Shown: positions 9,378-40,706 of the stretch, one piece after another | Layout: every line of letters starts with the position of its first letter | Numbering within the stretch: position 1 is the first letter of the stretch | The notes under the pieces: model-generated | Databases searched by the model: none | What the model was told of the DNA's origin: nothing | What the model saw: the letters and a program-made list of their open reading frames with translations, nothing else | Position numbers and translations under genes: made by a program | Origin: Gammaproteobacteria bacterium | GTDB taxonomy: Bacteria > Pseudomonadota > Gammaproteobacteria > Ga0077536 | Direction of reading: 5' to 3' | DNA length: 64,000 bases | Assembly (NCBI GenBank): GCA_009692365.1 | Contig: SHZJ01000007.1 | Span: forward strand, 30,867 to 94,866

Positions 9378-9390
9378 AGGCTTGCACCGC

Positions 9391-24195: not shown

Positions 24196-25554
24196 TCAGT
24201 TCCTCTGCTGGGTCCAGGCGGTCATTGCGTTTAGCTGTGCAATGAGCGCGCTGCCCGTGGTTTGCAGGCTGGCAATCACCGAATCTAGCTTATTGTATTG
24301 CTTTGTCAGCCGGTCTTGAGTAGCAGCCAGCCGCAGCTGAAGGCGTTTTTTCTGACCCTCCTGACTTTTAATCTGGCGCTGCAAGCCCTCGCCGCGCGCG
24401 TCGAGAACAGCACCGGTGCCTAGGAAGCCGTCGGCCAGCGCGCGCAGACGGTGGGCGACACCGTGAACGGGATCGGCAAAAAGCTTGGCGAACCCTTCGT
24501 AGTCGTTGTGCATGGCGCTGGTTAGCATGGCGGCGTTAACCGCTAGCGAGCCATTTTTTAGCGTGCTGATGCCCACCTCAAACGCATTGCTGAAACTGCC
24601 CTCCACCGTGGCTGGCTGGTTCAGCGTGGCGCGCATCTGCGACTCGATGTTGTTGAGGGCCGATGGGTCGTTCTTCAGCACATCGGTCCGCATTTTGTTC
24701 ATCAGCGCGATGACGTCAGAATAAGATTTAGCAAAACCCTGGACGGTGTTCTGCACGCTAGCCGTGTCGCGATCAATCTTCAGCGTTAGTGCGCCGACCT
24801 TGAGCAAGTTCATTGAGACCCCCTCCACCGAGTCGCTGATCGTGTTGGAGCTGCTGGTAATCGTGAAATTAGTCTCGAGTGTTACCACCGCGTTGAGATC
24901 CATCGAGGTAAAGCTGCCGCTCGAGTCGCGGTCGGAATTGAGCGTTGTCAAACCGAATGCATCGCTGCCCACGTAAGACACGCCTAGCGCGCCGTCGCTG
25001 CCCGTGGTGTTCGCCGCCAAGGACAGGTGATAACCGGTGTCGTCCTTGAATATCGAGGCCGTCGCACCGGTATTGTCGCGCGCCTGATTGATGGCGTCGC
25101 GGATGCCGGCCAGTGTTTTGGCGCCGGTATCGACGGTAAAACTGCTGCTTCCCGCGGTTAGCGTGAGGGTATCTCCGGCGGTCCCGATAGCGGTGGTATC
25201 AGTGTCTGCATAGGTAATGCTAGCGGCCATGCGGTGAGTTTCCGCGAGGCGCCGCACATCGATGTTGTAAGTCCCTCTGCTTGCGGCGCTGGTCGCCGAG
25301 GCGCTCAGCAGGGTGGGATCGGAAGGCGTGGCCGAATAAACTTTGAATTTCGACAGGTCGGCCAGTTTGTCTAACGCGTCGCGGAAGTTTGACACCGCAG
25401 CTTTGAGCATACCAAACGCGCTGAGCTGGGTCTTTTTTTCGACTATCTGAAGACTAAGTTTGTTGAGGGGTGCTGTCTCCAAGGACATTAGTTTTTCCAC
25501 AATGCCGCGGATATCAAGGCCCGACCCGATCCCAGGAGTACTTAACGTTGCCAT
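24196..25554 (-). CDS. fliD: Filament cap FliD
   Basis: GIGSGLD, LSAFG, C-terminal RLTKQYNKLD. Confidence 0.94.
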   Translation of the reverse strand: MATLSTPGIGSGLDIRGIVEKLMSLETAPLNKLSLQIVEKKTQLSAFGMLKAAVSNFRDALDKLADLSKFKVYSATPSDPTLLSASATSAASRGTYNIDVRRLAETHRMAASITYADTDTTAIGTAGDTLTLTAGSSSFTVDTGAKTLAGIRDAINQARDNTGATASIFKDDTGYHLSLAANTTGSDGALGVSYVGSDAFGLTTLNSDRDSSGSFTSMDLNAVVTLETNFTITSSSNTISDSVEGVSMNLLKVGALTLKIDRDTASVQNTVQGFAKSYSDVIALMNKMRTDVLKNDPSALNNIESQMRATLNQPATVEGSFSNAFEVGISTLKNGSLAVNAAMLTSAMHNDYEGFAKLFADPVHGVAHRLRALADGFLGTGAVLDARGEGLQRQIKSQEGQKKRLQLRLAATQDRLTKQYNKLDSVIASLQTTGSALIAQLNAMTAWTQQRN

Positions 25555-25632: not shown

Positions 25633-26013
25633 TCAGATTGTTTCGTCGAGTAACACACCGTTTACACTACCCGCCTGATCCCGCAAGCGCTTAGCCAGCG
25701 CCAGCGCGACCGCGTCAGGAATCTGTCGTATCACTTCCTTAGTGTGCGGATCTATTATTCGCACCACGGTCCGTCCAGAATCTTTGTCGATGCTGAACTC
25801 TAAGTTGCGCTGGAGGTTCTGTACATAGCCGATGAGGCTCCCCAGTGCCTGGGTTAATTGCTCGGAGTCGACCCCGATCGCAGCACCTGCCACGGGTGGT
25901 GTGTCCGTGAGTGTAGAGACGTTTTCAGCAACGCCGGCGGGCTGCCTGCTCGCGGCGGTTGCTAGGCTATCTGTGCCAGCAAGTTTCGGTCCGATGGTTG
26001 CCGTGTTGTGCAT
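25633..26013 (-). CDS. flaG: FlaG-family protein
   Basis: LEFSIDKDSGRTVVRIID...EVIRQIP. Confidence 0.92.
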   Translation of the reverse strand: MHNTATIGPKLAGTDSLATAASRQPAGVAENVSTLTDTPPVAGAAIGVDSEQLTQALGSLIGYVQNLQRNLEFSIDKDSGRTVVRIIDPHTKEVIRQIPDAVALALAKRLRDQAGSVNGVLLDETI

Positions 26014-26094: not shown

Positions 26095-27579
26095 TTACGA
26101 GCGCAAAAGCGTCAGTACCATGCTTGGCTGTTGGTTGGCCTGGGCTACCATGGCAATCGACGCCTGCGCTAGGACTTGGGCCTTGGTCATCGCGGCTGTT
26201 TCGGCCGCGAAGTCGGTATCCATGATCCGGCCGCGCGCGGTAATGATGTTCTCCTTCATAACCTCGAGGTTGTTACTAATCGCCTCAAAGCGGCCGGCCA
26301 GAGCGCCCAACTCAGCACGCTGAGCGTTGACCTCGTTCAGCGCGGCATCAAAGGTCAACATCGCCAGATTGGCCGAGGCCGCGCTGGTGACGACCTGCGA
26401 CGCGAGCGTGGAATTGACCAGCGTGGCAGCGGAAGTACTGGCCCCGGTCAAGGCTGCCCCGGTTGCGGTACTGTTGAAGGTAACCGTGAGGTCGCCCAAG
26501 TCGTCGTTCAGCACGATGGCACCGTTCGCGTGCGCCCCCACCGAACTGGTGGTGAAGAATGTGCCGATGCCGGCGTCGATGCTGGTGTTCGCAATCACAG
26601 AGATCGCGGCCCCGTCAGTGTTGGTCAACACGATAGAGGAGTTGGCGGGAGTGTTGAGATCGGCCACTATCGAGGCTGTGACCCCCGTCTGGGCGCTCAC
26701 GGCGTTTATCTGGATTATCAGGTTAGACGCCATAGTCCCGTTACTGGCGGCGGCCGCTACTGTGCCGATGGTTACCCCGTTGATGCTAAGCGCCCCGGAG
26801 GCAAGGCCATCAGTCACAGCGGCGGTTGCGCCGGCTGTGCCGTAGGCAGTGCCTACGCTGCCGTTACCGTAGCTAAAGGCAATCACGCCATTAGTGGCGC
26901 TTGCTGCGTTGAGCGCGTCAAGTTTCAGGTCAGAGTTGGAGTTAGCGACGACGTTGCCGACGCTTGTGGCGTCAACCGTGCTGCTACTCAAAGCGTGGCG
27001 ATAGGAGGTGCCGATGTTGTCCGCCAAGCCCTGGCTGCTCAGCGCCGAAATGGCTGCGTAGCTGGTTGCAATGCCCATTTGGTCAGTGGAGAGGTCGCTT
27101 ATCGCGATGTTAACGTCCTCGTTTACCATCGTGCCCACTTGGATGTTGCCGCGAAAACTACCGTCCAACAGCAGTTCGCCGTTATAACGGGCCTGATTCA
27201 CCGTGCGGGTCATTTCCGCCAGAATACTCTGCACTTCTTCATTGAGGGAGTCGCGGTCTTCCGCGGTGTTGTAGCTGGCCGCCTGCACCGCAAGATCCTT
27301 TGCGCGGATTATGTTCGCGGTCATTTCGTTCAACGCGCCTTCCGCAGTTTGCACGATGGACAGGCCATCCATGGTGTTGCGCTGGGCGACCGTCGTGCCC
27401 TGAATTTGGTTAGTCATGCGAACCGCGATGGAGAAGCCTGCAGCGTCGTCTTTGGCGCTGTTGATGCGAAGGCCGGACGACAAACGCTCCATCGACGTCG
27501 TTAGGGCGTTTTGAGTACGATTCAAGGAACGCTGCGCCATCATCGACGCCTGATTGGTCATGATTGAAGTAGTAGTCAC
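26095..27579 (-). CDS. fliC: Flagellin (494 aa, Ser/Thr/Ala-rich variable domain)
   Basis: ERLSSGLRINSAKDDAAG, QTAEGAL, RAELGA, RIMDTDFAAE, AQANQQP. GTG start with GGAG RBS. Confidence 0.97.
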   Translation of the reverse strand: MTTTSIMTNQASMMAQRSLNRTQNALTTSMERLSSGLRINSAKDDAAGFSIAVRMTNQIQGTTVAQRNTMDGLSIVQTAEGALNEMTANIIRAKDLAVQAASYNTAEDRDSLNEEVQSILAEMTRTVNQARYNGELLLDGSFRGNIQVGTMVNEDVNIAISDLSTDQMGIATSYAAISALSSQGLADNIGTSYRHALSSSTVDATSVGNVVANSNSDLKLDALNAASATNGVIAFSYGNGSVGTAYGTAGATAAVTDGLASGALSINGVTIGTVAAAASNGTMASNLIIQINAVSAQTGVTASIVADLNTPANSSIVLTNTDGAAISVIANTSIDAGIGTFFTTSSVGAHANGAIVLNDDLGDLTVTFNSTATGAALTGASTSAATLVNSTLASQVVTSAASANLAMLTFDAALNEVNAQRAELGALAGRFEAISNNLEVMKENIITARGRIMDTDFAAETAAMTKAQVLAQASIAMVAQANQQPSMVLTLLRS

Positions 27580-27676
27580 TGTAAATCTCCTGGCCGCTTC
27601 ATGTGGGAGTCATGTCACGAACCTGGTTGCTATGGCGGACATGCTTGAAAAAAGCATTCACCGCCTCCCGGGATGG

Positions 27677-27704
27677 CTATCGGAAACCCCCTCAAGTTTC
27701 TTTA
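27677..27704 (-). promoter_or_regulatory. Sigma28 promoter for fliC
   Basis: TAAA-N16-TCCGATAG, preceded by an A-rich UP-like tract. Confidence 0.7.
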
Positions 27705-27854: not shown

Positions 27855-27870
27855 TGGCGCGCTTATTGCA
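27855..27870 (+). promoter_or_regulatory. Sigma54 promoter for the GT41 pair
   Basis: TGGCGCGCTTATTGCA (GG-N10-GC). Confidence 0.65.
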
Positions 27871-27880
27871 GTTTCTGCGC

Positions 27881-30046
27881 ATGAAACCCACTCGCGTCAG
27901 CCCCTCACGTAACGACCGCTGTCCCTGTGCCAGCGGTCGAAAATTTAAACGATGCTGCCTGAACAAGGCCGTGCCGCCCGCGGCCGACCAGCGCTTTGCG
28001 GCCGCCTTAGCCTACGAACGCCGTGGGGAGCACGCGGCCGCTGCGGCCATTTATGCGGAAATTCTCGTCCACACACCCAGTCATGTGCCATCGCTGCAGG
28101 CGCTCGGGCTGGTTTATTTCGGGCGCGGCGAGCGCGTAGCGGCGCTCACCTTGCTGCGCCACGCTTGCGAGCTTTCGCCCGAGGATGCCGAACTGCAGAA
28201 CAACCTTGGTGCGGTGCTCAATGAGGACCGGCAGGTCGAGGAGGCTATCGTCCACCTCCATAAAGCCATCACGCTGCGGCCCCAGTACGCCGCGGCGCAC
28301 AATAATCTGGGTAGCGCGCTGCGCGCCTACGGCAAACTGGCCGAAGCTGAACACTGCTACCGTGAGGCGCTCCGACTGCACCCGGATTTTCCGCCGGCGA
28401 TTATCAATCTGGGCAGCGTGCTACGCACGGCAGGACGCCTGACGGACGCGCTTGGCTGCTATCGCCGGGCCTTGGAGCTGATGCCATCGAGCTACGAAGG
28501 CTGGAGCAATCTCGGCAATATCCTGATGGAAACCGACCGTTTGGCCGAGTCGTTGCCCTATTTTGAGGAGGCACTGCGCCTAGCGCCGCACAGCGCGCTG
28601 GCAAACTACAATTTCGCGAACGCGCTAAAAGAGTCCGGTGCGCGCGACCGTGCTGGCCAGTTACTGGCGCGGGCGGTTGAGCTGGACCCCTCGCTAGCCG
28701 AGGCACATAACAATTTGGGTAATATTCGTCGCGAACAGGGGTGTTTGCCGCAAGCGCTCGCCTGTTTTAGTCGGGCGCTGGCAGTGCGGCCGGCGTATCA
28801 AACGGCGCATAGCAATTTGCTGTTTACCACGGCGTATATGGATGACCTCGCGCCAGCGGACATCTTTGCACTGCACTGCGGCTGGGCTGACTTGCAAGCG
28901 GCACGGGTGCCGCCACCCGCGCCGCACGACAATCTGCGCGACCCCCACAAGCGCTTAAAAATTGGCTATGTCTCACCGGATTTTCGCACCCACTCCTGCG
29001 CGCTATTTTTGGCGCCGCTGTTGTATTCGCATAACCGCTCGGTGGTGGAGGTCTACGCCTATGCTGAGGTCGCCAAACCCGACGCGGTCACCGTGCAGTT
29101 GCAGGGTCAGGTGGATGTTTGGCGCAGTACGGTGGGTTTGAGCGACGAAGAATTGGCGTCATTAATCCGTCATGACGGCATTGATGTGCTGGTCGATCTG
29201 GCAGGCCACACCGCCAATAACCGCTTATTAGCCTTGGCCCGCAAACCCGCGCCGGTGCAGGCAACCTATCTGGGTTACCCGGCGACTACCGGCTTGCCCG
29301 CCGTGGACTGGCGGATCACCGATGCCGTCACCGAGCCGCCGGGCCTAACCGAGCGCTACTACACGGAGCAGTTGTATCGTCTGCCGCACAGCCTGTGGTG
29401 CTACTTGGCGCCCTCCGACATGGGCGCGATCCCGCCGCTGCCGGCGCTCTCGCGGGGTTATGTGACCTTCGGCTCACTCAACAATTACGCCAAAGTGGGC
29501 GCGCGGGTGGTGGCTTTGTGGGCGGCGGTGCTCACGGCCGTGCCCAGCGCCCGTTTGCGGATCATGACTGTCCCGGAGGGCGAAACTCAGGCCCTGCTCA
29601 TGGCGCAGTTCGCGGCCTTGGGTATCGCGCGTGAGCGTCTGGACCTGCTCGACCGGGTGCCGCGCGATCGCTATATCCGCAGTGGTGAGGAAATCGACAT
29701 TGCGCTCGACCCTTTCCCGTGTAACGGCGGTACGACGACTTGTGACGCGCTGTGGATGGGCTTGCCGGTGGTGGCGCTCAAGGGCAACACGTTTTTGTCA
29801 CGGGCCAGTCTCAGCGTGCTGAACGCCGCCGGTTATCCGCAGTTCGCCGCCGCGCACGAAGCGCAATATATTGCGCTCTGCGTGGCGTTGGCGGGCGACC
29901 TTAACCACCTGGCTGAAATTCGCCAGAGCCTGCGCGCGCGGATGGTGGCCTCGGCACTGATGGATGTGGTGGGCTTTACCAGCGATATGGAAGCGGCTTA
30001 TCGGGCGATGTGGGTTGCGTGGTGCGAACGGCCAACCGCGCCGTGA
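27881..30046 (+). CDS. SEC-C + TPR + GT41 (O-GlcNAc transferase/SPINDLY-like) glycosyltransferase
   Basis: RNDRCPCASGRKFKRCC; repeated NNLG TPRs; RLKIGYVSPDFRTH, DLAGHT, PAPVQATYLGYPATTG, FGSLNNYAK, LDPFPCNGGTTTCDALWMGLPVV. Confidence 0.9.
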   Translation: MKPTRVSPSRNDRCPCASGRKFKRCCLNKAVPPAADQRFAAALAYERRGEHAAAAAIYAEILVHTPSHVPSLQALGLVYFGRGERVAALTLLRHACELSPEDAELQNNLGAVLNEDRQVEEAIVHLHKAITLRPQYAAAHNNLGSALRAYGKLAEAEHCYREALRLHPDFPPAIINLGSVLRTAGRLTDALGCYRRALELMPSSYEGWSNLGNILMETDRLAESLPYFEEALRLAPHSALANYNFANALKESGARDRAGQLLARAVELDPSLAEAHNNLGNIRREQGCLPQALACFSRALAVRPAYQTAHSNLLFTTAYMDDLAPADIFALHCGWADLQAARVPPPAPHDNLRDPHKRLKIGYVSPDFRTHSCALFLAPLLYSHNRSVVEVYAYAEVAKPDAVTVQLQGQVDVWRSTVGLSDEELASLIRHDGIDVLVDLAGHTANNRLLALARKPAPVQATYLGYPATTGLPAVDWRITDAVTEPPGLTERYYTEQLYRLPHSLWCYLAPSDMGAIPPLPALSRGYVTFGSLNNYAKVGARVVALWAAVLTAVPSARLRIMTVPEGETQALLMAQFAALGIARERLDLLDRVPRDRYIRSGEEIDIALDPFPCNGGTTTCDALWMGLPVVALKGNTFLSRASLSVLNAAGYPQFAAAHEAQYIALCVALAGDLNHLAEIRQSLRARMVASALMDVVGFTSDMEAAYRAMWVAWCERPTAP

Positions 30047-32427
30047 ACGTGCAAGATTTGCTGCAGCAGGCTCTGGCGCAGCACCAGTCCGGGCGTTTTG
30101 AGGAGGCCGCGGCAAGCTGTCGAGAAGTCCTTAAGGCACACCGCGACAACGTCGATGCCTTGCATTTTCTGGCGCTCACGCAGCGTGAGCGCGGCGCGTT
30201 TGAGGAAGCGCAAGGCCTGCTGCTGAGGGTGGTTAAGCTGCGCCCGAAGTTTGCGGCAGCGCACGGAAATCTGGGTTTGGTCTACGCCGACCGGCAGCTT
30301 TTTCCGCAAGCGGACGCGGCTTACCGGCGCGCGTTAGCGCTTAACGCCGAGCTGCCAGAAACTTGGTTTAATCTGGGTAATCTGCTGCGCGCTACCGGCA
30401 AGCCCGAGGAGGCCATCGTCTGCTATGGCCACGCGCTGCAACGCAAAGCGCTCGCCGGTGCACAGCATAATTTGGCCGAGGCGCTGATCGAGACCGGCGA
30501 ACCTGCGCGCGCGGTGGCACATTTTCGGGCCGCGCTGGAATTGGCACCGCAATCCCCTTTGATTTGGCACCGGCTGGGCAGCACGCTGCAGTCGTTGGGG
30601 GCTTTTGAAGCAGCGCTTCCCTGCCTGTTCCGCGCCACGCAACAGGCACCCGATTCCGCCGCAGCACAGAACGACTTCGGCAACGCACTCAACGATTTTG
30701 GCCGCACACCAGAAGCCGCCGCCTGCTACGAGCGCGCGCTGGCGCTTAAGCCCGGCTTGATCGAAGCGTGGAACAATCTTGGCAACGCGCAGCGCAAGCT
30801 GGGGCTGCTGCGCGAGGCCGAAGCCTCTTTCCGGCGTGCGCTGGCCGAAAAACCCGACTTCGCTGAGGCCTATCTCAATCTCGGCATCGTGCTCAAAATT
30901 GCCAACCGGGCAGAGGAGGCAATTTATTGCTTCCGGGAGGCGCTGATCCATCAGCCTGGTTTGGTTCAGGCGCATAACAATTTGGGGGTCGTGTTTACCG
31001 AAGGTGGCCGACACGCCGAGGCTATCGCCGAACTCCAGAGCGCGCTTGCCATCCGGCCGCAGTTTGCCGAGGCCTGGAACAATCTGGGTAATGTTTACAA
31101 AAATGCGGGCGAACTGCCGGCCGCGCTAGAGGCTTTTGCCCAGGCGCTCGAGTACCAGCCCGATTACACCGTTGCGCACAGTAATTATTTGTTCACGCTT
31201 AATTTTATCGACGGTGTGAGCGCGGACCACATTGCGCAGGCGCATCGTGACTGGGGCCTTCGTCATGTCGCAGGTATCGCCGTAGGCGCGCCGTACGCGA
31301 ACTCTCCAGAGCCCCACCGGCGGCTTAAAATTGCCTATATCTCGCCAGATTTTCGCCATCACGCCTGCGCGTTTTTTATCGAGCCACTGCTGCGCGAGCA
31401 CGACCGCTCGCAGGTGGAGGTGTACGCCTACGCGGAACTCGCCCAGCCCGACGCCATGACGCTGCGCCTGAAAAAGCACGTGGACGTGTGGCGCAGTATT
31501 ACCGGGTTGCCCGATCAACAGGTGGCCGAGGTGATTCGCGCCGATGGCATCGATGTGCTCATTGACCTTGCGGGCCATACCGCCAATGGCCGCTTGCTGA
31601 CCTTGGCGCGCCGGCCCGCGCCGGTGCAGGTGACCTATCTGGGTTATCCCGCTACCACCGGGCTGACGGCCATTGATTGGCGCTTGACCGATGGCGTGAC
31701 GGAGCCGACCGAGTGCAGCGACGCTTGGTACACCGAGCAGCTGTACCGTCTGCCCCATAGCCTGTGGTGTTATCAACCGTTCGCGGACATGGGCCCAAGC
31801 ACGGCCTTGCCGGCGCTGGCCCGCGGGCAGATAAGTTTTGGCTCCTTTAACAGCTACGCCAAAATTGGGCCACGCGTGGTGGCGCTGTGGGCGGCAGTTC
31901 TGCGCGCCTTGCCTAACGCTCGTCTGGTGATGATCACGGTGCCCGCGGGGGACGCGCAAGAATTACTCTGGCAGGAGTTTGCCCGCCTGGAGATCCCCCG
32001 TGAACGGGTGGCGTTGCACGAGCGCTTACCGCGCGCAGCTTATGTGAAGCTGTTTTCTGAGGTAGATATTGCCCTTGACCCGTTTCCTTGCAACGGTGGC
32101 ACGACCACCTGTGATGCGCTCTGGATGGGACTGCCGGTGGTGGCCTTGCAAGGTGACACGTTTTTATCGCGCGCGAGTTTGAGCGTTCTCACCGCCGCCG
32201 GGTGCGCGGAATTTTCTGCCCGCGACGAGCGTGCTTATGTCGAGCGCTGTGTTGGGTTAGCCGCCGATTGGGATGCCCTGAGTACACTTCGCCACGGCTT
32301 GCGGGCCCGCCTAAGCGCCTCGGCGCTGCTCAACGCACCGGCCTTTGCACGTGACATCGAGTTGGCTTATCGCCACATGTGGATGGCGTGGTGCGCCGGT
32401 ACGGCCCCCCCGGTCGCATCCGCTTAG
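30043..32427 (+). CDS. Second TPR + GT41 glycosyltransferase
   Basis: Longer TPR array and the same GT41 motifs (YISPDFRHH, DLAGHT, YLGYPATTG, NGGTTTCDALWMG). GTGA overlap with the first gene. Confidence 0.9.
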   Translation: MNVQDLLQQALAQHQSGRFEEAAASCREVLKAHRDNVDALHFLALTQRERGAFEEAQGLLLRVVKLRPKFAAAHGNLGLVYADRQLFPQADAAYRRALALNAELPETWFNLGNLLRATGKPEEAIVCYGHALQRKALAGAQHNLAEALIETGEPARAVAHFRAALELAPQSPLIWHRLGSTLQSLGAFEAALPCLFRATQQAPDSAAAQNDFGNALNDFGRTPEAAACYERALALKPGLIEAWNNLGNAQRKLGLLREAEASFRRALAEKPDFAEAYLNLGIVLKIANRAEEAIYCFREALIHQPGLVQAHNNLGVVFTEGGRHAEAIAELQSALAIRPQFAEAWNNLGNVYKNAGELPAALEAFAQALEYQPDYTVAHSNYLFTLNFIDGVSADHIAQAHRDWGLRHVAGIAVGAPYANSPEPHRRLKIAYISPDFRHHACAFFIEPLLREHDRSQVEVYAYAELAQPDAMTLRLKKHVDVWRSITGLPDQQVAEVIRADGIDVLIDLAGHTANGRLLTLARRPAPVQVTYLGYPATTGLTAIDWRLTDGVTEPTECSDAWYTEQLYRLPHSLWCYQPFADMGPSTALPALARGQISFGSFNSYAKIGPRVVALWAAVLRALPNARLVMITVPAGDAQELLWQEFARLEIPRERVALHERLPRAAYVKLFSEVDIALDPFPCNGGTTTCDALWMGLPVVALQGDTFLSRASLSVLTAAGCAEFSARDERAYVERCVGLAADWDALSTLRHGLRARLSASALLNAPAFARDIELAYRHMWMAWCAGTAPPVASA

Positions 32428-32557
32428 GTCGGGTTAAACCCACGGTATAGGCCAATGACGCCACGCCGGGGCGCGCGTTAGTTGGCGCACTGTCACTGCG
32501 GTGTTGGCCACGCGCCAACGCTGAAAATGGTAGTCCCGAGCAGATCAGATCGGCGGG

Positions 32558-33439
32558 CTAGATGCGGTCAAACCACGGGATATGCCATTCCCGCCACGCG
32601 GCGCGCTGGGCGCGCGGTGAAAAAATCTGCCAATGGGCGAGTGTTTGTGGGCGCCACGTGACCGCCGTGTTCGCCACGAGCCAGCGTTGAAAATCGCTGG
32701 CCAAACGCTCGTTCACCCACACCCGGCTGGCACCGCGCTGTAGACGCTGCCAGAGTTCAGGAAAACTTTGGGGCGCGCCGGCCACCTCGTAGACGTAGCG
32801 GGTGGTGTCGTCTTGCCCCACGAGTGCATAGCCGGGCGTGGGGCCGGTCACGCTGACCACGGCGCTGGACGGGGCCGGCAGCGGTAGTGCACGCCACGCG
32901 GCGGCATCGCGCAGCACCCGCTGGGTTGAGCAGGCTTGCTGGATGGCCTCGAGTACGGGCCAACCGGGGTGCGGGGTTGGGGGGGAGGGCCGGGTGGTGG
33001 CGGGTGCCAAGGAACCCAGAACGCCCTGGTCGTTGGGTATCCAACCTAAGCGCTGATAAAAGCCCTCTAGCCCGCTCCACAGCACGGCAAAGTCGTAACC
33101 CTGTTGGGCCAGTTGCGCCACCAGCGCGCTGAGCAGTGCGCCCGCGTGGCCCCGGCCACGGGCGGCTGGCTGGGTGTACACCATCCCCACCATGGCACCG
33201 CGAAAGTGTTCCTCCGCAACCAGCCAATCGAAGGGACGCACGGCGCAACACGTGAGGATGTCGCCATGCAATTTGCCAACGTGGAGCTGGTCGAGGTGGG
33301 TCGCGCCGAGTGCGCTGGGATAACGGGCCGCCAGCGAACCGTGGCGACCCCGTGTGGTGATAAAGGTTGCGTCGAGGGCGGCTAACAGGGTGGGCCATTC
33401 GGCTAGCGAACAAGTCCCAAGGGTCAGGTTGTTGCTCAC
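32558..33439 (-). CDS. GNAT N-acyltransferase with a C-terminal extension
   Basis: VGMVYTQPAARGRGHAGALL (motif A), FYQRLGW. GTG overlaps the upstream stop. Confidence 0.8.
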   Translation of the reverse strand: MSNNLTLGTCSLAEWPTLLAALDATFITTRGRHGSLAARYPSALGATHLDQLHVGKLHGDILTCCAVRPFDWLVAEEHFRGAMVGMVYTQPAARGRGHAGALLSALVAQLAQQGYDFAVLWSGLEGFYQRLGWIPNDQGVLGSLAPATTRPSPPTPHPGWPVLEAIQQACSTQRVLRDAAAWRALPLPAPSSAVVSVTGPTPGYALVGQDDTTRYVYEVAGAPQSFPELWQRLQRGASRVWVNERLASDFQRWLVANTAVTWRPQTLAHWQIFSPRAQRAAWREWHIPWFDRI

Positions 33440-34557
33440 CAGCCGGCGGCGATACAGCGTGCGATGCGCGTGAGATCCTCTGGGCTCAGCCACCAGCCAC
33501 AGGGGATGCACAGGTTATCTGCGTCGAAGGCTTCTACCCCCGGCAGGGGCTGGCCAGGATCCGCAAAGCAACTGTAACGGTCGTTGCGCAAGTGCAGCCG
33601 CTGGGCGGCAATGCCGTGGCGGTGCAGTTTGTTGATGAGGCTCGCCCGCCCACTGGCGCGCAGCGCATAAACCCAGTGGGCCGATTGTGCCTCGGGGTCG
33701 CGTTGCAGCCGGGTGATGCCGGGCACGTTGGCCAAAGCTGCGTCTAGCCACGCCGCGTTGGCGCGATGCCGGGCGAGGGTGTCGTCGACTTCGCGCAATT
33801 GGGCGAGCGCAAGCCCGGCGGTGAGGTCGCTCATGGCGCAGCTATAGCCCGGTTGCTGGATGTCGCTGTCGGGGTTGAGGTCGCCACCGGGGAGCCGAAA
33901 ACTCGCCTGATGGATATTGAACCGGCGGAGTTGGCGGGCGCTCTGCGCGCTCGCCGCCGCGCCGCAAAACAACGCGCCCCCTTCACCGGCGGCTAGGTGG
34001 CTCACCGCGTAAAAAGAATAAACACAGAAGTCGCTGCCCGTGGCACCCAGGGCACGCCCCCGGAAGCTGGCCGCGAACGCGCCCGAAGCTTCCTCAATCA
34101 ACGGCAGATCCAGCAAATTGGCGGCGGCTTGCAAGGCCGCGAGCGGGCCGACATCGCCAGCCCAGTGGTAGTGAATAATGGCTTTGGCGCGCCGGCTGCG
34201 CTGGTTTTTCAGGGCTTGAGGGTCGAGCATGCCAGTGTTGGGATCGATGTCGCACCACACCGGACGGGCCTGCAAATTGGCGATGGGCATGGTGGTCGAC
34301 AGGCAGGTTAGCGGGGAGAGCAGCACTTCGTCGCCGGGTGTCACACCGCACAAACGCAGGGCAAGCGTTAGCGCCCCCGCGCGGTCGCTGGTGGCGACAC
34401 AGTGCGGGTTGCCGATGCGCTCGCCGAGACGGGTTTCGAATTCATGCACGCGCGGGCCGGTGGCCAGTTGCCCGGAGGCCAATACGTGGGCTATGGCGTC
34501 GGCGGCCCCGGCCGCGATGCGGCCTTTAAAGAGCGAAATGGGTGGCTCACCAGCCAC
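33436..34557 (-). CDS. DegT/DnrJ/EryC1/StrS-family paralogue lacking the PLP lysine
   Basis: GPRVHEFE, GDEV, PVWCDID. IEEASGA replaces IEDAAHA and SFYAVSHLAAGEGG has Ser at the Lys position. GTG start 34557. Confidence 0.85.
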   Translation of the reverse strand: MAGEPPISLFKGRIAAGAADAIAHVLASGQLATGPRVHEFETRLGERIGNPHCVATSDRAGALTLALRLCGVTPGDEVLLSPLTCLSTTMPIANLQARPVWCDIDPNTGMLDPQALKNQRSRRAKAIIHYHWAGDVGPLAALQAAANLLDLPLIEEASGAFAASFRGRALGATGSDFCVYSFYAVSHLAAGEGGALFCGAAASAQSARQLRRFNIHQASFRLPGGDLNPDSDIQQPGYSCAMSDLTAGLALAQLREVDDTLARHRANAAWLDAALANVPGITRLQRDPEAQSAHWVYALRASGRASLINKLHRHGIAAQRLHLRNDRYSCFADPGQPLPGVEAFDADNLCIPCGWWLSPEDLTRIARCIAAGW

Positions 34558-35644
34558 GCCGAAGCACCGCCACGATGTGCTCGCGGGCGGCATCGTCCAC
34601 CCACCATCCGCAGGGGATATGCAGCATCCGGGCATAAAAGCGATCCAAGCCCGGTAACTCGCGACGGCTCGCCGCAAATACCGTGTGTCGGTCGTTGCGC
34701 TGGTGGGCTTTAGAGTTGCCGATACCGTGCGCCGAGAGGTGGCGCGCCAAGCCGTCTGGGTCGTCGCAAAGCAGCGTATAGAACCAGTACGAAGGTTCGG
34801 CGGCAGGTTCGAATTGGCACCCGGACAAACCCGGAATGCGCGGCAGGGAGTCGTCAAAGTAGCGACCATTGGCCTGGTGGCGGGTCAGCGCCGGGGCGAT
34901 ATGCGCCAACTGCACCAGCCCAATCGTCGCGTTGACGTTATTCATGTGGTACTTGAAGCCGACTTCGGTCACATCCACGCTGGTGCGCGAGGCGTGGCGG
35001 TCGATCCCAAACCAGCGCAGGCGGCGACCGCGCGGCAGGAGGCTGGCGTCAGCGCAGGTCAACATACCGCCATCCACGGTGGTCATGTGTTTGATCGCCT
35101 GCAGGGAGAACATGACAAACGCCGAGTGGTTCCCAATGGCGAGTCCAGCGTAGCGCGCGCCGAGGGCATGGGCCGCGTCTTCGATCACGGGCAGACCATA
35201 GCGGGCCGCGAGCGCCGTGATACTGGCCAATGGCGCCGGAATGCCGCCGTAGTGCACCACCAAAATGGCGCGGGTGCGCGGGGTAATCGCCGCTTCGATG
35301 CTAGCCGCGGTGAGATTGCCGTTCGCGGGGTCGACATCCGCCCAGCGAGGGATGCCGCCGGCGTGGAGAATGGCAAGGTTGGTGGGCTCGGCGGTCATTG
35401 CCGTGCTCACGACTTCGTCTCCGCGTTGCACCCCGGCCAGCAGTAGCGCGATATGCAGGGCTGCCGTGCCCGAATAAAACGCGAGGCAGCGCGGGTTGCC
35501 CAGCCACTCGCCGAAGCGCGCCTCGAACTCGGCAACCGGCTGGCCCTCGCTGATTTGCCCGCTATAAAGCACCTCTTGCAGGCGCGGCATCAGCGCTGCG
35601 GGCGGCGCCATCAGCACTTTAAACAGCGGAATGTCGGACTGCAC
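34547..35644 (-). CDS. DegT/DnrJ/EryC1/StrS sugar aminotransferase
   Basis: SGTAALHIAL, VHYGG, IEDAAHALG, SLQAIKHMTTVDGG (catalytic Lys present). Start uncertain (35644 or 35671). Confidence 0.9.
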   Translation of the reverse strand: MQSDIPLFKVLMAPPAALMPRLQEVLYSGQISEGQPVAEFEARFGEWLGNPRCLAFYSGTAALHIALLLAGVQRGDEVVSTAMTAEPTNLAILHAGGIPRWADVDPANGNLTAASIEAAITPRTRAILVVHYGGIPAPLASITALAARYGLPVIEDAAHALGARYAGLAIGNHSAFVMFSLQAIKHMTTVDGGMLTCADASLLPRGRRLRWFGIDRHASRTSVDVTEVGFKYHMNNVNATIGLVQLAHIAPALTRHQANGRYFDDSLPRIPGLSGCQFEPAAEPSYWFYTLLCDDPDGLARHLSAHGIGNSKAHQRNDRHTVFAASRRELPGLDRFYARMLHIPCGWWVDDAAREHIVAVLRRGW

Positions 35645-35648
35645 CGGC

Positions 35649-36656
35649 CTAGAACTTGGCAAATTCGCCATCGGCCATTTCCATTATTTCGAACTCTCGG
35701 TCCGCCAGCGCAAGCATGCGTTGCACTTCGTCGGTGCCTGTGAGGTGGTCGCCGGAGGCAAACTCGGCCTCAATTTCTTGGTAGCGGTCGGTGCTCCACC
35801 AAGGCTGCACCACGTAGTAGTCGCCGTAGTCTCGGCCCCGGACGAGTTCTTCTTCGGAGACCAGAATTTCGTGCAGTTTTTCGCCGGGCAAAATGCCGAT
35901 GACTTTATAAGCGAACGGCCGGCCGGCTTCGGCCGCCAGCACCTGCGCGATATCGGTCACTTTGGCTGCCAGCGCCTTGCGGACAAAAATCTCCCCCCCT
36001 TGGGTGTGTTCGGCGGCATACAGCACGAGATCAATGGCCTCGTTCAGGGTGAGCAGGAAGCGGGTCATGCGCTCATCGGTAATGGTCAGGGTTTGGCCTA
36101 AAGCAAGCTGGCGTCGGAAAAACGGCACCACCGAGCCGCGTGATCGCAGCACATTGCCGTAGCGCACGCAGCACAGCCGAGTGCCCTTATTGGCGCGCGA
36201 AAGATTGCCTTTAAGCACGATGCGCTCTTGCAGCGCTTTGGTCATGCCCATCACGTTGACCGGCTTGACCGCTTTATCGGTGCTGATCATCACGAAGGTT
36301 TCTACCCGCTGCCGCACCGCGCACTCCACGAGGTTTTCAGCCCCCAACACATTGGTGCGCACAGCTTCCATGGGGTGTTGCTCGCAGGTGGGCACCTGCT
36401 TGAGGGCGGCCGCGTGGAACACGATGTCGATGCCTTGCATGGCTTCGTCTACGACTTCGCGGTTGCGGATGTCGCCGATGACGAAAGTGAGGTCTTTTCG
36501 CCCCTGATAAAAGACCCGCATGTCGTACTGTTTTTTCTCGTCGCGCGACAGCACCCGCACTTCGCGGACGCCGGCGTTGAGCAGTCGGCGGACGACAAAA
36601 TTGCCGAATGACCCGGTGCCGCCGGTGACAAGAACCGTTTTGTGACGATAGTCCAT
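35649..36656 (-). CDS. UDP-GlcNAc 4,6-dehydratase, CapE/WbjB/FnlA-like
   Basis: TGGTGSFG, SRDEKKQ, FHAAALKQVP, STDKAV, MGMTK (MxxxK in place of YxxxK), RYGNV.SRGSV, PGEKLHE. Confidence 0.88.
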   Translation of the reverse strand: MDYRHKTVLVTGGTGSFGNFVVRRLLNAGVREVRVLSRDEKKQYDMRVFYQGRKDLTFVIGDIRNREVVDEAMQGIDIVFHAAALKQVPTCEQHPMEAVRTNVLGAENLVECAVRQRVETFVMISTDKAVKPVNVMGMTKALQERIVLKGNLSRANKGTRLCCVRYGNVLRSRGSVVPFFRRQLALGQTLTITDERMTRFLLTLNEAIDLVLYAAEHTQGGEIFVRKALAAKVTDIAQVLAAEAGRPFAYKVIGILPGEKLHEILVSEEELVRGRDYGDYYVVQPWWSTDRYQEIEAEFASGDHLTGTDEVQRMLALADREFEIMEMADGEFAKF

Positions 36657-36716
36657 CGTGCCCTCGTTCGGATTATTGACGCTGGCCGGGCAAAAAACCC
36701 GGTCGTGACGGGGTGA

Positions 36717-36733
36717 GGCAATCTTTGCGCCAG
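36717..36733 (-). promoter_or_regulatory. Sigma54 promoter for the sugar-biosynthesis operon
   Basis: CTGGCGCAAAGATTGCC (GG-N10-GC). Confidence 0.65.
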
Positions 36734-36915: not shown

Positions 36916-37311
36916 ATGAAGCCAATGCCGCGGCCTACTTTTAAAGGCATCTCCCAGTATCGCAATATCGAGCTCGAGTCGAGCGTGGCGTCTGCCAGCC
37001 CGCACAAGCTCATCGAAATGCTCTTAGACGGCGCGCTAGGAAAAATCCAGATGGCCCGCGGTTGCATGGAACGCAAGGAAATTGGCCCTAAATGTGCTGC
37101 GATCAACTGGTCGCTCTCGATCATAGAGGGCTTGTATTCCAGCTTAAACATGGCCGAGGGCGGGGACATTGCGCTGGGCTTGAGCAAGCTTTACGAATAT
37201 ATGATGCGCCGCCTAGTGGCCGCCAACGCAGGCAACGAGGTCGCCATCCTCGATGAAGTCACGCAACTATTGGGCGAGGTGCGGACAGGTTGGGTGGCGA
37301 TTCGGCGCTAG
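36916..37311 (+). CDS. fliS: Flagellin chaperone FliS
   Basis: ASPHKLIEMLLDGA, GGDIA, LYEYM. Confidence 0.95.
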   Translation: MKPMPRPTFKGISQYRNIELESSVASASPHKLIEMLLDGALGKIQMARGCMERKEIGPKCAAINWSLSIIEGLYSSLNMAEGGDIALGLSKLYEYMMRRLVAANAGNEVAILDEVTQLLGEVRTGWVAIRR

Positions 37312-37932: not shown

Positions 37933-39384
37933 ATGCTCGTGCCGGAAATCCGCGCGTTTATTCTTGAGCAAGATGCCGAGATTGCCTTGCAGTTTATGCA
38001 GGTGCTGGCCTATCTGGACCTACCCGCCCGCCAACTCACAGTGGACGCCGATTGGTCGGTGCTCCTCAGCGCCGAGGAGCCACCCTATCTATTGATGATC
38101 GGCCAGAGCGGGTCGGCGGCCGCCGCCCACCGCGTTGGCGAAAAACTCTGCGAGTTGGACGCGGCGATCCCGCTGGTTGTGCTCGAGTCCTGCGAACTCA
38201 GACCTGAAATTTTGGCCGCACTAGAAAATCGCATCGTGGGCCGGCTGCCGTTGCCCCTGCGGCACGTCCATTTCGAAAAAATCCTGCAAAAAATCGCGCT
38301 GTATCGCGACAACCGACAGCAGGGTGCGCCCCCGCGCAACCCGGAACTGTTTCGCAATTTGGTCGGTGGCAGCTTGGGCATCCAACGGGTGCGCAACATG
38401 ATTGAAATGGTCGCCAAAAGCGACGCCAACGTGCTGGTCACGGGAGAATCGGGCACCGGGAAAGAAGTGGTGGCAAGGCATATCCACCACCACTCAACGC
38501 GGCGCACCAAGCCTTTTGTGCCGATCAACTGTGGCGCGATCCCCCCCGACCTGCTGGAAAGTGAATTGTTTGGGCACGAGAAAGGCGCTTTTACCGGGGC
38601 TATTACCGCCCGTCAGGGCCGTTTCGAAATGGCCGACAGTGGCACGCTGTTTCTCGATGAAATTGGCGATATGAGCCTGCCGATGCAGGTAAAGCTGCTC
38701 AGAGTGCTGCAAGAGCGCAGCTTCGAGCGCGTGGGCAGCAACAAGAGCATTTCGGTGAACGTGCGAATTATCGCCGCGACCCACGTAAATCTCGAACAGG
38801 CCATTTTGGATGGCCGGTTCCGTGAGGATTTGTTTTATCGCTTGAATGTATTCCCCATCGAAACCCCCCCGCTGCGCGACCGCGCTGAAGATCTGCCGCT
38901 GCTGGTCAGCGATTTGGTGACCCGGCTCGGCCACGAGGGGCGCGGCACGATTCGCTTCACCCACGCCGCGGTGCACCTCTTGGGGGCGTACGGTTGGCCC
39001 GGCAACGTGCGAGAGTTGGCGAATCTCGTGGAGCGCTTGGCCATCCTGTATCCCCACGGGCTGGTGGACACCCACGATTTGCCTGAGAAATATCGCGCTG
39101 ATGGCTACGTGCCGCCAGCCACGGCGGTCGGGGAGATGCGCGCGCCGCCGGAGGCGCGCGCGCGCCCGCTGGCCGAGGCCGGCGCGGCCCGCCTGCCGCG
39201 CAGCGGGATTGATCTCAAAGAACACCTCACCAAAATCGAGGCTAACCTCATCATTCAAGCGCTGGAAGAAGAAAGCTGGGTGGTGGCACACGCGGCGAAG
39301 CGCCTGCAGATGGGGCGCACCACGCTGGTGGAAAAAATGCGCAAGCTGGGTTTGGGACGCCAGGAAGATCTGACAGGTCCTTGA
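37933..39384 (+). CDS. fleQ: Sigma54 master regulator FleQ/FlrA
   Basis: Degenerate receiver-like N-domain, [35 protein letters not shown]. Confidence 0.93.
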
Positions 39385-39513
39385 CGCCGGCCGAACTCGC
39401 CGTCAGTTTTCCGCTACTGCACCCCTGCCCCAACTCGCCGGCCTAACGCGGTTGTGACCTTAAAATCAGCATCTTGCCGGGCGGGCCCGCATTAAAACGG
39501 CGGGTTATCTGCG

Positions 39514-39529
39514 TGGCATGCTCTTTGCT
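39514..39529 (+). promoter_or_regulatory. Sigma54 promoter for fleSR-fliE
   Basis: TGGCATGCTCTTTGCT. Confidence 0.8.
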
Positions 39530-39572
39530 AAAACCCCGGAAGCGATAGTCGCCAAAGGGAGCAGCGCCCGCC

Positions 39573-40706
39573 ATGGGCTCAGAATTAGTCACCGAATCCT
39601 CCGTTCTGAAGACGACCAACGGGCCGGGTGCCTCGCCCGCGCACGCGCCGGTCGAGGGGCTGCCGAGCTGGGATCAATACGAACGGGTGCTGGCGGACCG
39701 CGAACGCTTGACGCTGCGTTTGGCCACGTTATTGGGCGCATTACCAGCCGGGGTAGTGGTTTTAGACGCGCAGGGACGCGTGACCCAAGCCAATTTGGCG
39801 GCGGCGGAGCTCTTAGGTGTCTTGGCGGTGGGGGAAGCGTGGTTTGAAGTCGTCGGGCGGGCCTTTGCGCCACGCTGGGACGATGGCCATGACGTCTCGC
39901 TGGCGGACGGTCGCCGGGTGAACGTCGCCACCCAAGCGCTGCCGCACGAGCCCGGCCAAATTCTGCTCATCAAGGATGTGAGCGAAACCCGTCGGCTCCA
40001 AGAACAACTCTCACACCACCGGCGGCTGTCGGCCAAAACCGAAATGGCCGCCGCGCTCGCCCATCAAATCCGTACCCCCCTGGCCGCGGCATTGCTAGCC
40101 ATAGGCCCGCTGGCCCGCGGCCACGGCCTCGCCGAGTCGCAGCGCCGCAGCGCCGAGCGGGTGCTGGAATCGCTGCGCCAGCTCGACCGTTTGGTTGAGA
40201 ACATGCTGAGCTTTGCGCGCGGCGCGCTGGTTGATGCGCAGCCCATCGCGCTCACCGCGCTGCTGGAGCGGCTGCGGCTGGAGGCCGCCCCGGTGCTGGC
40301 GCCGGGTCAACTGGCACTCGACTGCGGCGCGGAGCACGCCGCGCTGCAAATTTATGGCAACGCCGATGCCTTGCTGAGCAGCATGCTGAATCTGGTGGCG
40401 AACAGCCGCCAAATCGTCGGCGAGGACTGCCAGCTGCGAGTGGCCGTTGCCACCTTGGGCGAGTTTGTGGCTCTGCGTTTCATTGACAATGGCCCCGGCG
40501 TGCCCGTGGTCGAACGCGCGCGTGTTTTCGAACCGTTCCACACCACGCGGCGCGGCGGCACCGGTCTGGGACTGTCGGTTGCGCAGGCCATCGCGCGCGC
40601 CCATGGCGGGGAACTCGGTCTGGACGTGGATTACCCACACGGCGCCTGTTTCGAATTCTCCCTGCCAACCTATACCCAAACCCCCAGCGCGCAGGTCTCG
40701 GCATGA
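39573..40706 (+). CDS. fleS: PAS sensor kinase FleS/FlrB
   Basis: LPAGVVVLD, AHQIRTPL, DNGPG, GTGLGL. Confidence 0.92.
   Translation: MGSELVTESSVLKTTNGPGASPAHAPVEGLPSWDQYERVLADRERLTLRLATLLGALPAGVVVLDAQGRVTQANLAAAELLGVLAVGEAWFEVVGRAFAPRWDDGHDVSLADGRRVNVATQALPHEPGQILLIKDVSETRRLQEQLSHHRRLSAKTEMAAALAHQIRTPLAAALLAIGPLARGHGLAESQRRSAERVLESLRQLDRLVENMLSFARGALVDAQPIALTALLERLRLEAAPVLAPGQLALDCGAEHAALQIYGNADALLSSMLNLVANSRQIVGEDCQLRVAVATLGEFVALRFIDNGPGVPVVERARVFEPFHTTRRGGTGLGLSVAQAIARAHGGELGLDVDYPHGACFEFSLPTYTQTPSAQVSA

Follow-up and report, generated by a model that had tools for sequence, protein, structure and literature searches.

A predicted flagellin O-glycosylation island with twin SPINDLY-like GT41 transferases and a four-gene UDP-amino-sugar cassette in an uncultured freshwater lineage

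Between the flagellin gene fliC and the gene fliS of a polar-flagellum gene cluster lie six genes, and the question they raise is what they make and which protein receives it. They are carried by a 64,000-nucleotide stretch of DNA, here called the window (contig SHZJ01000007.1, positions 30,867 to 94,866, assembly GCA_009692365.1), from a genome of 3.46 Mb with ~62% G+C that is 93% complete. We examined the gene content, motifs, folds, conservation and linkage of these genes. The data make it moderately likely that, in an uncultured freshwater lineage resembling Burkholderiales, they form an accessory island for the O-glycosylation of flagellin that was inserted between fliC and fliS and would transfer a sugar from a UDP-amino-sugar onto FliC. 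The island consists of two convergent arms, listed here with the presumed acceptor gene.

26095..27579, minus strand: fliC, presumed acceptor (Flagellin_N, Flagellin_C, Flagellin_IN)
27881..30046, plus strand: GT41a, 721 aa from the ATG, with a SEC-C zinc motif, tetratricopeptide repeats (TPR) and a GT41 domain (PF13844, 1.3e-51; PF02810)
30043..32427, plus strand: GT41b, 794 aa, with TPR and a GT41 domain (PF13844, 1.9e-54)
32428..32557, no strand: 130-nt spacer between the convergent arms, with only a weak 8-nt inverted repeat
32558..33439, minus strand: GNAT, an Eis-like double-GNAT N-acyltransferase, 293 aa (PF13527)
33436..34557, minus strand: DegT2, a DegT-fold paralog with Ser instead of the Schiff-base lysine (PF01041; motif SFYAVSH)
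34547..35671, minus strand: DegT1, an intact sugar aminotransferase (PF01041, 1.4e-80; SLQAIKH)
35649..36656, minus strand: short soluble UDP-GlcNAc 4,6-dehydratase of the PseB/CapE/FnlA class, MxxxK form (PF02719, 9.7e-99)

Both arms are tightly packed. The GTG start of GT41b overlaps the TGA stop of GT41a as GTGA, and the overlaps in the sugar operon are 4 nt between DegT2 and GNAT (also GTGA), 11 nt between DegT1 and DegT2 and 23 nt between the dehydratase and DegT1. No canonical terminator was seen in the convergent spacer (32428-32557). A sequence-only reading of the window had described a coupled TPR-GT41 pair converging on a packed four-gene operon, without maf, PseI/NeuB synthase, CMP-transferase or CapF-like gene. 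All six genes were placed as it claimed, every structural point was right, and neither maf, NeuB, a CMP-transferase nor a reductase was seen among the block genes. The G+C content of the island is 0.62-0.66 versus 0.58-0.59 on the fliC side. The only flagellin gene detected in the genome is fliC (a single tblastn match), and the open reading frame (ORF) of GT41a starts 253 nt from it. The same reading stressed a Ser/Thr-rich flagellin alongside. The central part of FliC does have a Ser+Thr content of 25.8%, but values of 19-21% are also seen in FlgL, FliD and the hook protein and, therefore, the richness of FliC is not special.

The arrangement is conserved in the lineage. With GNAT as the marker, the cassette was detected in all 12 further genomes of the genus, in 2 of 12 other genera of the family and, outside the family, in 0 of 16 genomes. 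When 400 genomes were sampled evenly across the class, four matched, three of them from the same family and one through a partial GNAT-domain match. Twelve stretches around such matches were fetched. In these, the order fliC / GT41a-GT41b / GNAT-DegT2-DegT1-dehydratase / fliS-fleQ recurs wherever the contigs reach. Both GT41 genes are present in eight of the 12 and one GT41 gene in a ninth; the dehydratase, DegT1, DegT2 and GNAT are present in nine; and FliC is beside the GT41 pair in at least five. Protein identity to the window in these stretches is mostly just 45-66%. Thus, the co-occurrence of the six-gene set with fliC that had been proposed as a check holds, and the set is conserved next to fliC in the genus. 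Two relatives from the family lack the island (G014 and G016), and their genes run flgK-flgL-fliC-flaG-fliD-fliS-fleQ or flgL-fleQ without interruption. This uninterrupted order indicates that the island is an insertion, accompanied here by an inverted fliC-flaG-fliD segment. A metagenome locus from another lineage (L059) has a different arrangement, with flgL, the cassette, three GT41 genes and fliC in that order.

Some copies of the locus have been altered further. Some genomes of the genus (L023, L026, L027 and L058) contain a block of ~6 kb between GNAT and GT41b. We considered the inserted genes as extra glycan genes and rejected this, as they are trehalose genes (GT20 synthase, phosphatase, GH15) together with a 675-aa ATP-grasp protein. 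One genome (G021) has a Mu-type transposase and a 254-aa TPR-only remnant at the GT41 position (L029:1234-3585, 8773-9537).

Both transferases belong to the GT41 family, with N-terminal TPRs (many TPR families were matched) and PF13844 scores of 176 bits for GT41a and 185 bits for GT41b against a curated cut-off of 25. The closest solved structure to the GT domain of GT41b is Arabidopsis SPINDLY (7y4i, 3.9e-94), matched over the whole catalytic domain, followed by Thermobaculum OGT (5djs, 2.7e-77), human OGT (~1e-52) and Xanthomonas OGT (~1e-39). SPINDLY (PDB 7y4i, 8dtf) and the bacterial and human OGTs share the TPR + GT41 architecture. SPINDLY is a plant protein O-fucosyltransferase that has nuclear and cytosolic targets and uses GDP-fucose. 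By contrast to this eukaryotic enzyme, the island genes occur in a bacterial flagellar setting beside a UDP-amino-sugar operon. Across 30 of 30 extracted orthologs of the two paralogs, the His of SPDFxxH, the GH(T/S) motif and the Lys of FNxxxK are all retained; the TTT-C-D/E block is retained too, its only departures being three minor ones that affect the first Thr or the acidic residue. In GT41b the positions of the His, GHT, FNxxxK and TTT-C-D motifs are common to SPINDLY in the alignment. From work on OGT, we presume that these residues have catalytic or nucleotide-binding roles. Because the motif residues are retained in all of these orthologs, both paralogs (TRANSFERASES) look active. 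GT41a and GT41b are ~52% identical and both are also present in a second genus, and the duplication is therefore old.

The SEC-C motif, known from the C-terminus of SecA, heads GT41a-type proteins (27881-27960 in the window; L061:4280-6562) and was found on 10 of 13 GT41a-type orthologs, including the distant L061. The genome has a third PF13844 match, a 259-aa ORF in a 283-aa open frame that covers the C-terminal half of the GT41 model (G000:C73:14214-14993; L001:1396-2175). SPINDLY-like GT41 domains were found in 44 of 401 sampled genomes of the class. Among 20 GT41 neighbourhoods from other families of the class, filament genes were seen in one and the cassette in none; thus, adjacency to fliC is no general habit of such GT41 genes. 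At one locus of another family (L097; G141:C15:18500-38400), the genes flgL-fliC-flaG-fliD-fliS are followed after ~3 kb by a lone SPINDLY-like GT41 gene, and the cassette is missing. This may be an independent pairing of flagellin and GT41 with another sugar.

The dehydratase, of 336 aa counted from the ATG, has MGMTK as its version of the MxxxK motif, and all related stretches that span this region (22 of 22) have the same motif block, STDKAVKPVNVMGMTK. Among solved structures the enzyme is closest to 4j2o (2e-86) and CapE (1.3e-81), followed by Helicobacter pylori FlaA1. It scored below the cut-offs of two equivalog models, with 323.2 bits against PseB (cut-off 407.75) and 320.7 bits against FnlA (cut-off 730). 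The enzyme thus resembles CapE/FnlA/WbjB of the UDP-L-FucNAc pathway in having MxxxK for YxxxK. However, it falls short of the FnlA equivalog score, no CapF/FnlB-type reductase or CapG-type (2-)epimerase is found among the six block genes (for CapF, the search covered the block only), and the next enzyme is an aminotransferase. The sequence-only reading had taken a CapE-type enzyme feeding an aminotransferase to be an oddity. This was overstated, since the scores against PseB and FnlA are equal (323 and 321 bits). PseB and CapE/WbjB make the same first 4-keto product.

DegT1 has the characteristics of the DegT/DnrJ/EryC1 family, that is the fold (PF01041, 271.7 bits), the Schiff-base lysine (SLQAIKH) and the SGT phosphate motif (YSGTAAL), and both the Lys and the SGT motif are invariant in 20 of 20 orthologs. 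Its best PDB matches are 4zwv, 4xau and CalS13, and it scored 193.6 bits against the PseC equivalog (cut-off 423.5). DegT1 is 65-79% identical across all cassettes, even where GNAT is at just 30-37%.

DegT2 is also full length and has the DegT fold (224 bits), but it lacks the Schiff-base Lys and the SGT motif. All 12 family orthologs have Ser, Asn or Thr at the Lys position. In 22 wider orthologs this residue is K in 6, R in 5, S in 5, N in 4, T in 1 and A in 1, and among the best 120 clusters from a database search there are 57 with R, 37 with N, 13 with K, 10 with S and 3 with A. In these 120 best clusters the Gly of SGT is always Asp or Glu, and the Asp that contacts the ring nitrogen is kept in 118. 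Alignments of 23 sequences each gave 38 invariant columns for DegT2 versus ~150 for DegT1. Two DegT genes do not mean two amination steps here, given the missing catalytic Lys and the altered phosphate motif, and the conservation pattern indicates that DegT2 is probably a non-catalytic partner of DegT1. We also considered DegT2 as a pyridoxamine phosphate-dependent dehydratase of the ColD/E1 type. Such enzymes carry His at the Lys position. DegT2 is unlikely to be one, with Ser, Asn, Thr, Arg, Lys or Ala at this position and an acidic residue for the Gly of the phosphate motif.

A predicted DegT1-DegT2 complex scored 0.93 versus 0.00 for the best control; for comparison, 58 of 80 solved complexes and 2 of 110 mismatched pairs attained this mark. 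The runs agreed in at least 82% of contacts, and the predicted local distance difference test score (pLDDT) of the partner was at least 92. DegT homodimers have been solved in the PDB and, therefore, this pass may reflect likeness only. A heteromer of a live DegT1 and a dead DegT2 is the best reading. A precedent has been solved in Serratia, where SerTA (Ser4/Ser5) is a pair of an active and a Lys-less aminotransferase; the two are encoded by tandem genes annotated as sugar aminotransferases and activity needs the heterocomplex (PMC11726168). By the same source, SerTA differs in that Ser4 is shortened at both ends, whereas DegT2 is full length, and in that its substrate is bound to a carrier protein in a secondary-metabolite cluster.

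GNAT (293 aa from a GTG start) has two GNAT domains in an AlphaFold2 model (pLDDT 96.6). Its best Foldseek matches are Eis entries (PDB 3r1k and others; E 3.7e-14, TM 0.65 normalised to the query), which likewise have two consecutive GNAT folds and belong to Acetyltransf_9; this family (PF13527) matches 94 of 94 members of the GNAT family. However, GNAT lacks the third (SCP2-like) domain of Eis, is ~100 residues shorter (Eis has ~400 aa) and is only 12-20% identical to it in structural alignments. Eis acts on amino sugars, as GNAT would, although the substrate here would be a nucleotide sugar. The R-G-R-G-x-A CoA motif is present, and the C-terminus is strictly conserved in the family as WHIP(W/Y)FDRI or ...IP(W/Y)FDRI; we presume a parallel to the catalytic C-terminal carboxylate of Eis. 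No NCBIfam model matched GNAT, PseH included, which makes it the most distinctive gene of the set. A PDB sequence search returned two weak matches only, and an ESM Atlas search generic GNAT clusters only. The family comprises 226 representative clusters at E <= 1e-10 and 116 at E <= 1e-30. In one locus with proteins 77-98% identical to the flagellar cluster of the window (L007), the GNAT inter-domain linker contains a tandem peptide repeat of T-E-D-T-H-F-P-T-like units (L007:10094-11077) that is absent from the window copy.

Both arms of the island, and fliC, are preceded by promoter-like boxes.

27855..27869, plus strand: sigma54-type -24/-12 box TGGCGC-N5-TTGC of the GT41 arm, 1 mismatch, 11 nt before the GT41a ATG
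36718..36732, minus strand: sigma54-type box TGGCGC-N5-TTGC upstream of the dehydratase operon, 1 mismatch
27678..27704, minus strand: sigma28-type box TAAAG-N16-CCGATA upstream of fliC, like the box in relatives

The sigma54 boxes were scored against the consensus TGGCAC-N5-TTGC, and the fliC box was compared with the sigma28 consensus. Window-wide, 97 sigma54 matches with two mismatches or fewer were found versus 105 expected, which is not above chance; therefore, the boxes alone prove nothing. Sigma70-type sites were not in excess. Both the sigma54 box and its spacing to the start codon are preserved in 7 of 7 relatives for the GT41 arm and in 10 of 11 for the sugar arm, while the flanks diverge. 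This bears out the suggestion of the sequence-only reading that each arm has a sigma54-like promoter of the GG-N10-GC type, as a prediction from conserved DNA. Before fliC, TAAAG-N15/16-CCG(A/C)TA occurs in 9 of 9 related stretches.

The surrounding genes are as follows.

24196..25554, minus strand: fliD, filament cap (PF07195, PF02465)
25633..26013, minus strand: flaG (PF03646)
36916..37311, plus strand: fliS (PF02561, 1.2e-33)
37933..42076, plus strand: fleQ-, fleS- and fleR-like genes for sigma54 activators and a kinase, candidate activators of both arms (PF00158, PF00512, PF00072)

The full order is flgJ, flgK and flgL (plus) and fliD, flaG and fliC (minus) on the left; GT41a and GT41b (plus) and GNAT, DegT2, DegT1 and the dehydratase (minus) in the island; and, on the right and all plus, fliS, a fliT-like gene, the fleQ-, fleS- and fleR-like genes, fliF, and fliG onwards. 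Farther along the flagellar cluster a UDP-glucuronate decarboxylase (UDP-xylose synthase, UXS) gene lies at 48068-49075 on the minus strand, divergent from fliK, with a match of 1.7e-114 to human UXS1. It has the same position in relatives, including G014 and G016, both of which lack the island.

Because the arms have sigma54 boxes, fliC has a sigma28-type box and three sigma54-system genes lie next door, the simplest reading is that the glycosylation genes would belong to an earlier flagellar class than flagellin. In Caulobacter, glycosylation genes are reported to be expressed ahead of flagellin and its export (PMC7591256). Contigs from a lake-water metatranscriptome (X1, one study) are 90-97% alike to parts of GT41a, GT41b, DegT2, DegT1 and the dehydratase. 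They are a weak hint, as contigs in an RNA library show neither transcription nor transcript ends, and no conclusion follows for the parts without such contigs, among them GNAT and most of fliC.

Two features of the upstream regions were also noted. In the GT41 arm (27855-27883) the box ends 11 nt before the ATG (11-14 nt in relatives). The SEC-C motif requires translation to start at this ATG and, thus, a transcript from the sigma54 box may be leaderless or nearly so. The 5' leader of fliC (27580-27680, minus strand) is far more conserved among relatives than the flanking DNA, with the blocks GGGAGGCGGTGAATGCTT...AAGCATGTCCGCC...GACATGACTCCCACATG...CCAGGAGA in 7 of 9 stretches. It has no Rfam match, and no Rfam family matched anywhere in 20000-44000. 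The leader is a candidate post-transcriptional control element.

What the sugar operon would make is suggested by its likeness to the first steps of pseudaminic acid synthesis. As in PseB-PseC-PseH, a short soluble UDP-GlcNAc 4,6-dehydratase is combined with a C4 aminotransferase and a GNAT N-acetyltransferase. However, all three fall short of the equivalog cut-offs, the dehydratase has Met in place of the catalytic Tyr, and the GNAT is an Eis-like double one. The later enzymes of that pathway (PseG, PseI and PseF) were not recovered as a set: neither NeuB (PF03102) nor PseG had a match, although in a 93%-complete genome this does not prove absence, and a single CTP_transf_3 match lies on another contig. 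Because NeuB and PseG had no match, the pathway probably ends at a UDP-2-acetamido-4-acylamino-2,4,6-trideoxyhexose.

From these features we infer the substrates, product, acceptor and order of expression. Sigma54, with FleQ/FleR-type activators encoded just downstream, would switch on both arms before the sigma28-type promoter of fliC, so that the machinery would be ready by the time flagellin appears. The MxxxK dehydratase would convert UDP-GlcNAc to UDP-2-acetamido-2,6-dideoxy-hex-4-ulose. DegT1 would aminate C4, probably as a heteromer with DegT2, which has lost its own cofactor site. The Eis-like double GNAT would then N-acylate the new amine to give the UDP-2-acetamido-4-acylamino-2,4,6-trideoxyhexose. 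In chemical terms the pathway would follow the pseudaminic acid route through its first three steps and stop there. In the cytoplasm, before export, the soluble SPINDLY-like GT41 pair would grip flagellin by its TPR arms, as FlmG does, and pass the sugar of the UDP donor on to Ser/Thr in the central, exposed region of FliC. The two paralogs may serve different sites or add successive sugars.

UDP-2-acetamido-4-acylamino-2,4,6-trideoxy-L-hexose is normally just an intermediate towards a nine-carbon acid. We tentatively suggest, at somewhat short of even chances, that here it is the final donor of a short-circuited pseudaminic-type route, made by an obligate live/dead DegT heteromer and a trimmed Eis-like acetyltransferase and transferred by the GT41 pair directly onto Ser/Thr of flagellin. 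The sequence-only reading had proposed much the same path, from UDP-GlcNAc through 4-keto and 4-amino sugars to an N-acyl sugar on FliC. The logic of dehydratase, aminotransferase and N-acyltransferase without nonulosonate genes supports it; however, the cassette is not flagellum-specific everywhere.

This is seen from the distribution of the cassette outside the lineage. A search with the GNAT alignment gave 27 metagenome loci, and in 21 of these a DegT2-type gene adjoins GNAT or is within 3 kb of it. Flagellar genes were found in six (L053, L054, L056, L058, L059 and L067, the last with fliS and fleQ matches), all closer relatives. Other company includes a SEC-C-TPR-GT41 gene (L061) and a TPR-GT41 gene without a SEC-C match (L064), both verified with Pfam, distant GT41 genes (L073, L075 and L076), and a GT2 protein with a methyltransferase (L062). 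At L074:2361-4304 a TPR protein fused to a sulfotransferase domain (not GT41) adjoins a distant GNAT. The dehydratase-DegT1-DegT2-GNAT module is old and mobile, and its company varies.

Several of these and other observations weigh against flagellin as the target of the cassette sugar. The relatives are all uncultured, with names of metagenome-assembled genomes only, and glycan, donor and acceptor are deduced from genes. In addition, the cassette occurs in polysaccharide clusters at L065 (with Wzz-like, Wzx-like, GT2 and GT1 proteins) and L068 (with a UDP-GlcNAc 2-epimerase and a UDP-sugar dehydrogenase), and no flagellar genes were found at E <= 0.01 in the fetched DNA of the other distant loci among L061-L079. 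Thus, the cassette product is not tied to flagellin by nature and is a general building block; what ties it to flagellin in this lineage, as a prediction, is its position, the type of promoter and the GT41 pair alongside. The sequence-only reading had named a role of the operon in lipopolysaccharide (LPS) or capsule as its own refutation, and the settings of L065 and L068 give this some substance, but here the operon lies between fliC and fliS. We consider it quite improbable that the operon serves a surface polysaccharide (LPS O-antigen or capsule) as a mere neighbour of flagellar genes, with the GT41 pair using common donors. The intact sugar operon of G021, kept although a transposase broke the GT41 side, speaks for such a role. 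However, the operon has a conserved sigma54 box like the surrounding flagellar genes, no Wzx, Wzy, initiating transferase or other polysaccharide gene is found beside it, and at least 8 of 12 fetched stretches have the GT41 pair adjoining it.

The donor is a separate matter. The GT41 pair could glycosylate flagellin with a protein-linked sugar from UDP-GlcNAc, GDP-fucose or UDP-xylose, the cassette product being a capping sugar added by one paralog, or unused. The nearest solved relatives of the GT domain point this way, namely SPINDLY, a GDP-fucose user, and the bacterial OGT 5djs, as does the presence of two transferases (three in L059) for one sugar pathway. Other donors are also at hand, with a gmd gene in the genome (rmlC was not found there) and the UXS gene inside the flagellar cluster of this and related genomes. 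Yet gmd is on another contig, and the UXS gene has the same place in the island-free G014 and G016; it is therefore not tied to the GT41 pair, and we rejected it as the supplier to the second GT41. The cassette and a GT41 gene occur together in at least four separate arrangements. On balance, we regard this alternative as unlikely, but as the most probable of the three considered. The third is that flagellin is not the target of the TPR-GT41 proteins, which would instead act on a different protein of the flagellum or cell surface, for instance a pilin, or mainly regulate flagellar gene expression in the manner of Listeria GmaR, a TPR-bearing transferase. SPINDLY-like GT41 genes of the class are mostly away from flagellar genes, the SEC-C motif of GT41a has no assigned role, and a cyanobacterial GT41 homolog is needed for pilin glycosylation according to a preprint (bioRxiv 10.1101/2021.07.06.449578). 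Adjacency to fliC, conserved across the genus and found again in the second arrangement of L059, the intact catalytic motifs of both paralogs and the direct precedent of FlmG argue otherwise, leaving this explanation with little probability.

O-glycosylation of FliC by the GT41 pair remains the reading we prefer, and it resembles known systems in part. FlmG of Caulobacter crescentus and Brevundimonas is described as a soluble two-part enzyme encoded with flagellar genes, whose TPR arm binds flagellin and whose GT-B domain sets the donor (PMC7591256; bioRxiv 10.1101/2022.03.25.485807). GT41a and GT41b share the TPR + GT-B architecture and the flagellar setting. FlmG is a single gene product whose donors are CMP-activated nonulosonic acids (Pse or Leg). 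By contrast, the island encodes two paralogs, one of them with SEC-C, the GT domain is nearest SPINDLY, and the genome gave no match to a NeuB-type synthase or PseG; the likeness drawn here is one of architecture. PF13844 also matches in a Caulobacter control genome, possibly at FlmG itself. The contrast between Maf/FlmG and GT41 transferases drawn by the sequence-only reading does not stand, since FlmG is itself described as TPR + GT-B (PMC7591256), PF13844 matches the Caulobacter control, and GT41 occurs in enterobacterial islands. What differs from FlmG here is the donor side.

In a survey of Enterobacteriaceae, GT41 (COG3914, SPINDLY-type) is found in 14 of 42 flagellin island types (De Maayer and Cowan, 2016; PMC4875605). 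As described there, these islands, predicted from genomes only, lie beside the flagellin gene and also combine GT41 with DegT aminotransferases and N-acetyltransferases, but nearly all of their GT41 proteins have a methyltransferase domain as well and their sugar genes are mostly of the rhamnose type (PMC4875605). The island described here differs in its twin TPR-GT41 genes, MxxxK dehydratase, Lys-less DegT and Eis-like GNAT. The general kind of system is thus already known: flagellin is O-glycosylated in the cytoplasm by a GT-B/GT41 enzyme with a TPR arm, and a dedicated sugar operon lies next to fliC. FlmQ of Burkholderia cenocepacia reportedly transfers a 4-acylamino-4,6-dideoxyhexose. The particulars were not described in the literature searched, namely twin SPINDLY-like transferases (one with SEC-C), a Pse-like route cut after three steps, an MxxxK dehydratase, a live/dead DegT pair and a trimmed Eis-like acetyltransferase.

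Sugars on flagellin affect filament assembly and motility as well as attack by phages and recognition by the immune system, and flagellin transferases are wanted as tools for the cytoplasmic O-glycosylation of chosen proteins. The soluble, TPR-armed FlmG has been shown to work only with nine-carbon acids. If our reading is true, a TPR-GT41 pair that acts on a UDP-amino-sugar would widen the scope of such engineering, and GT41, studied mostly for eukaryotic O-GlcNAc and O-fucose, would gain an easily tested bacterial substrate. The dehydratase-DegT1-DegT2-GNAT module offers a clear example from nature of nucleotide-sugar synthesis that involves a live/dead enzyme pair, and it is found in many uncultured bacteria and in both protein- and polysaccharide-linked settings. 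Together, the island would then bring GT41 a new class of donor and flagellin a new glycan, along with a widespread sugar module of four genes that is not named by any curated family.

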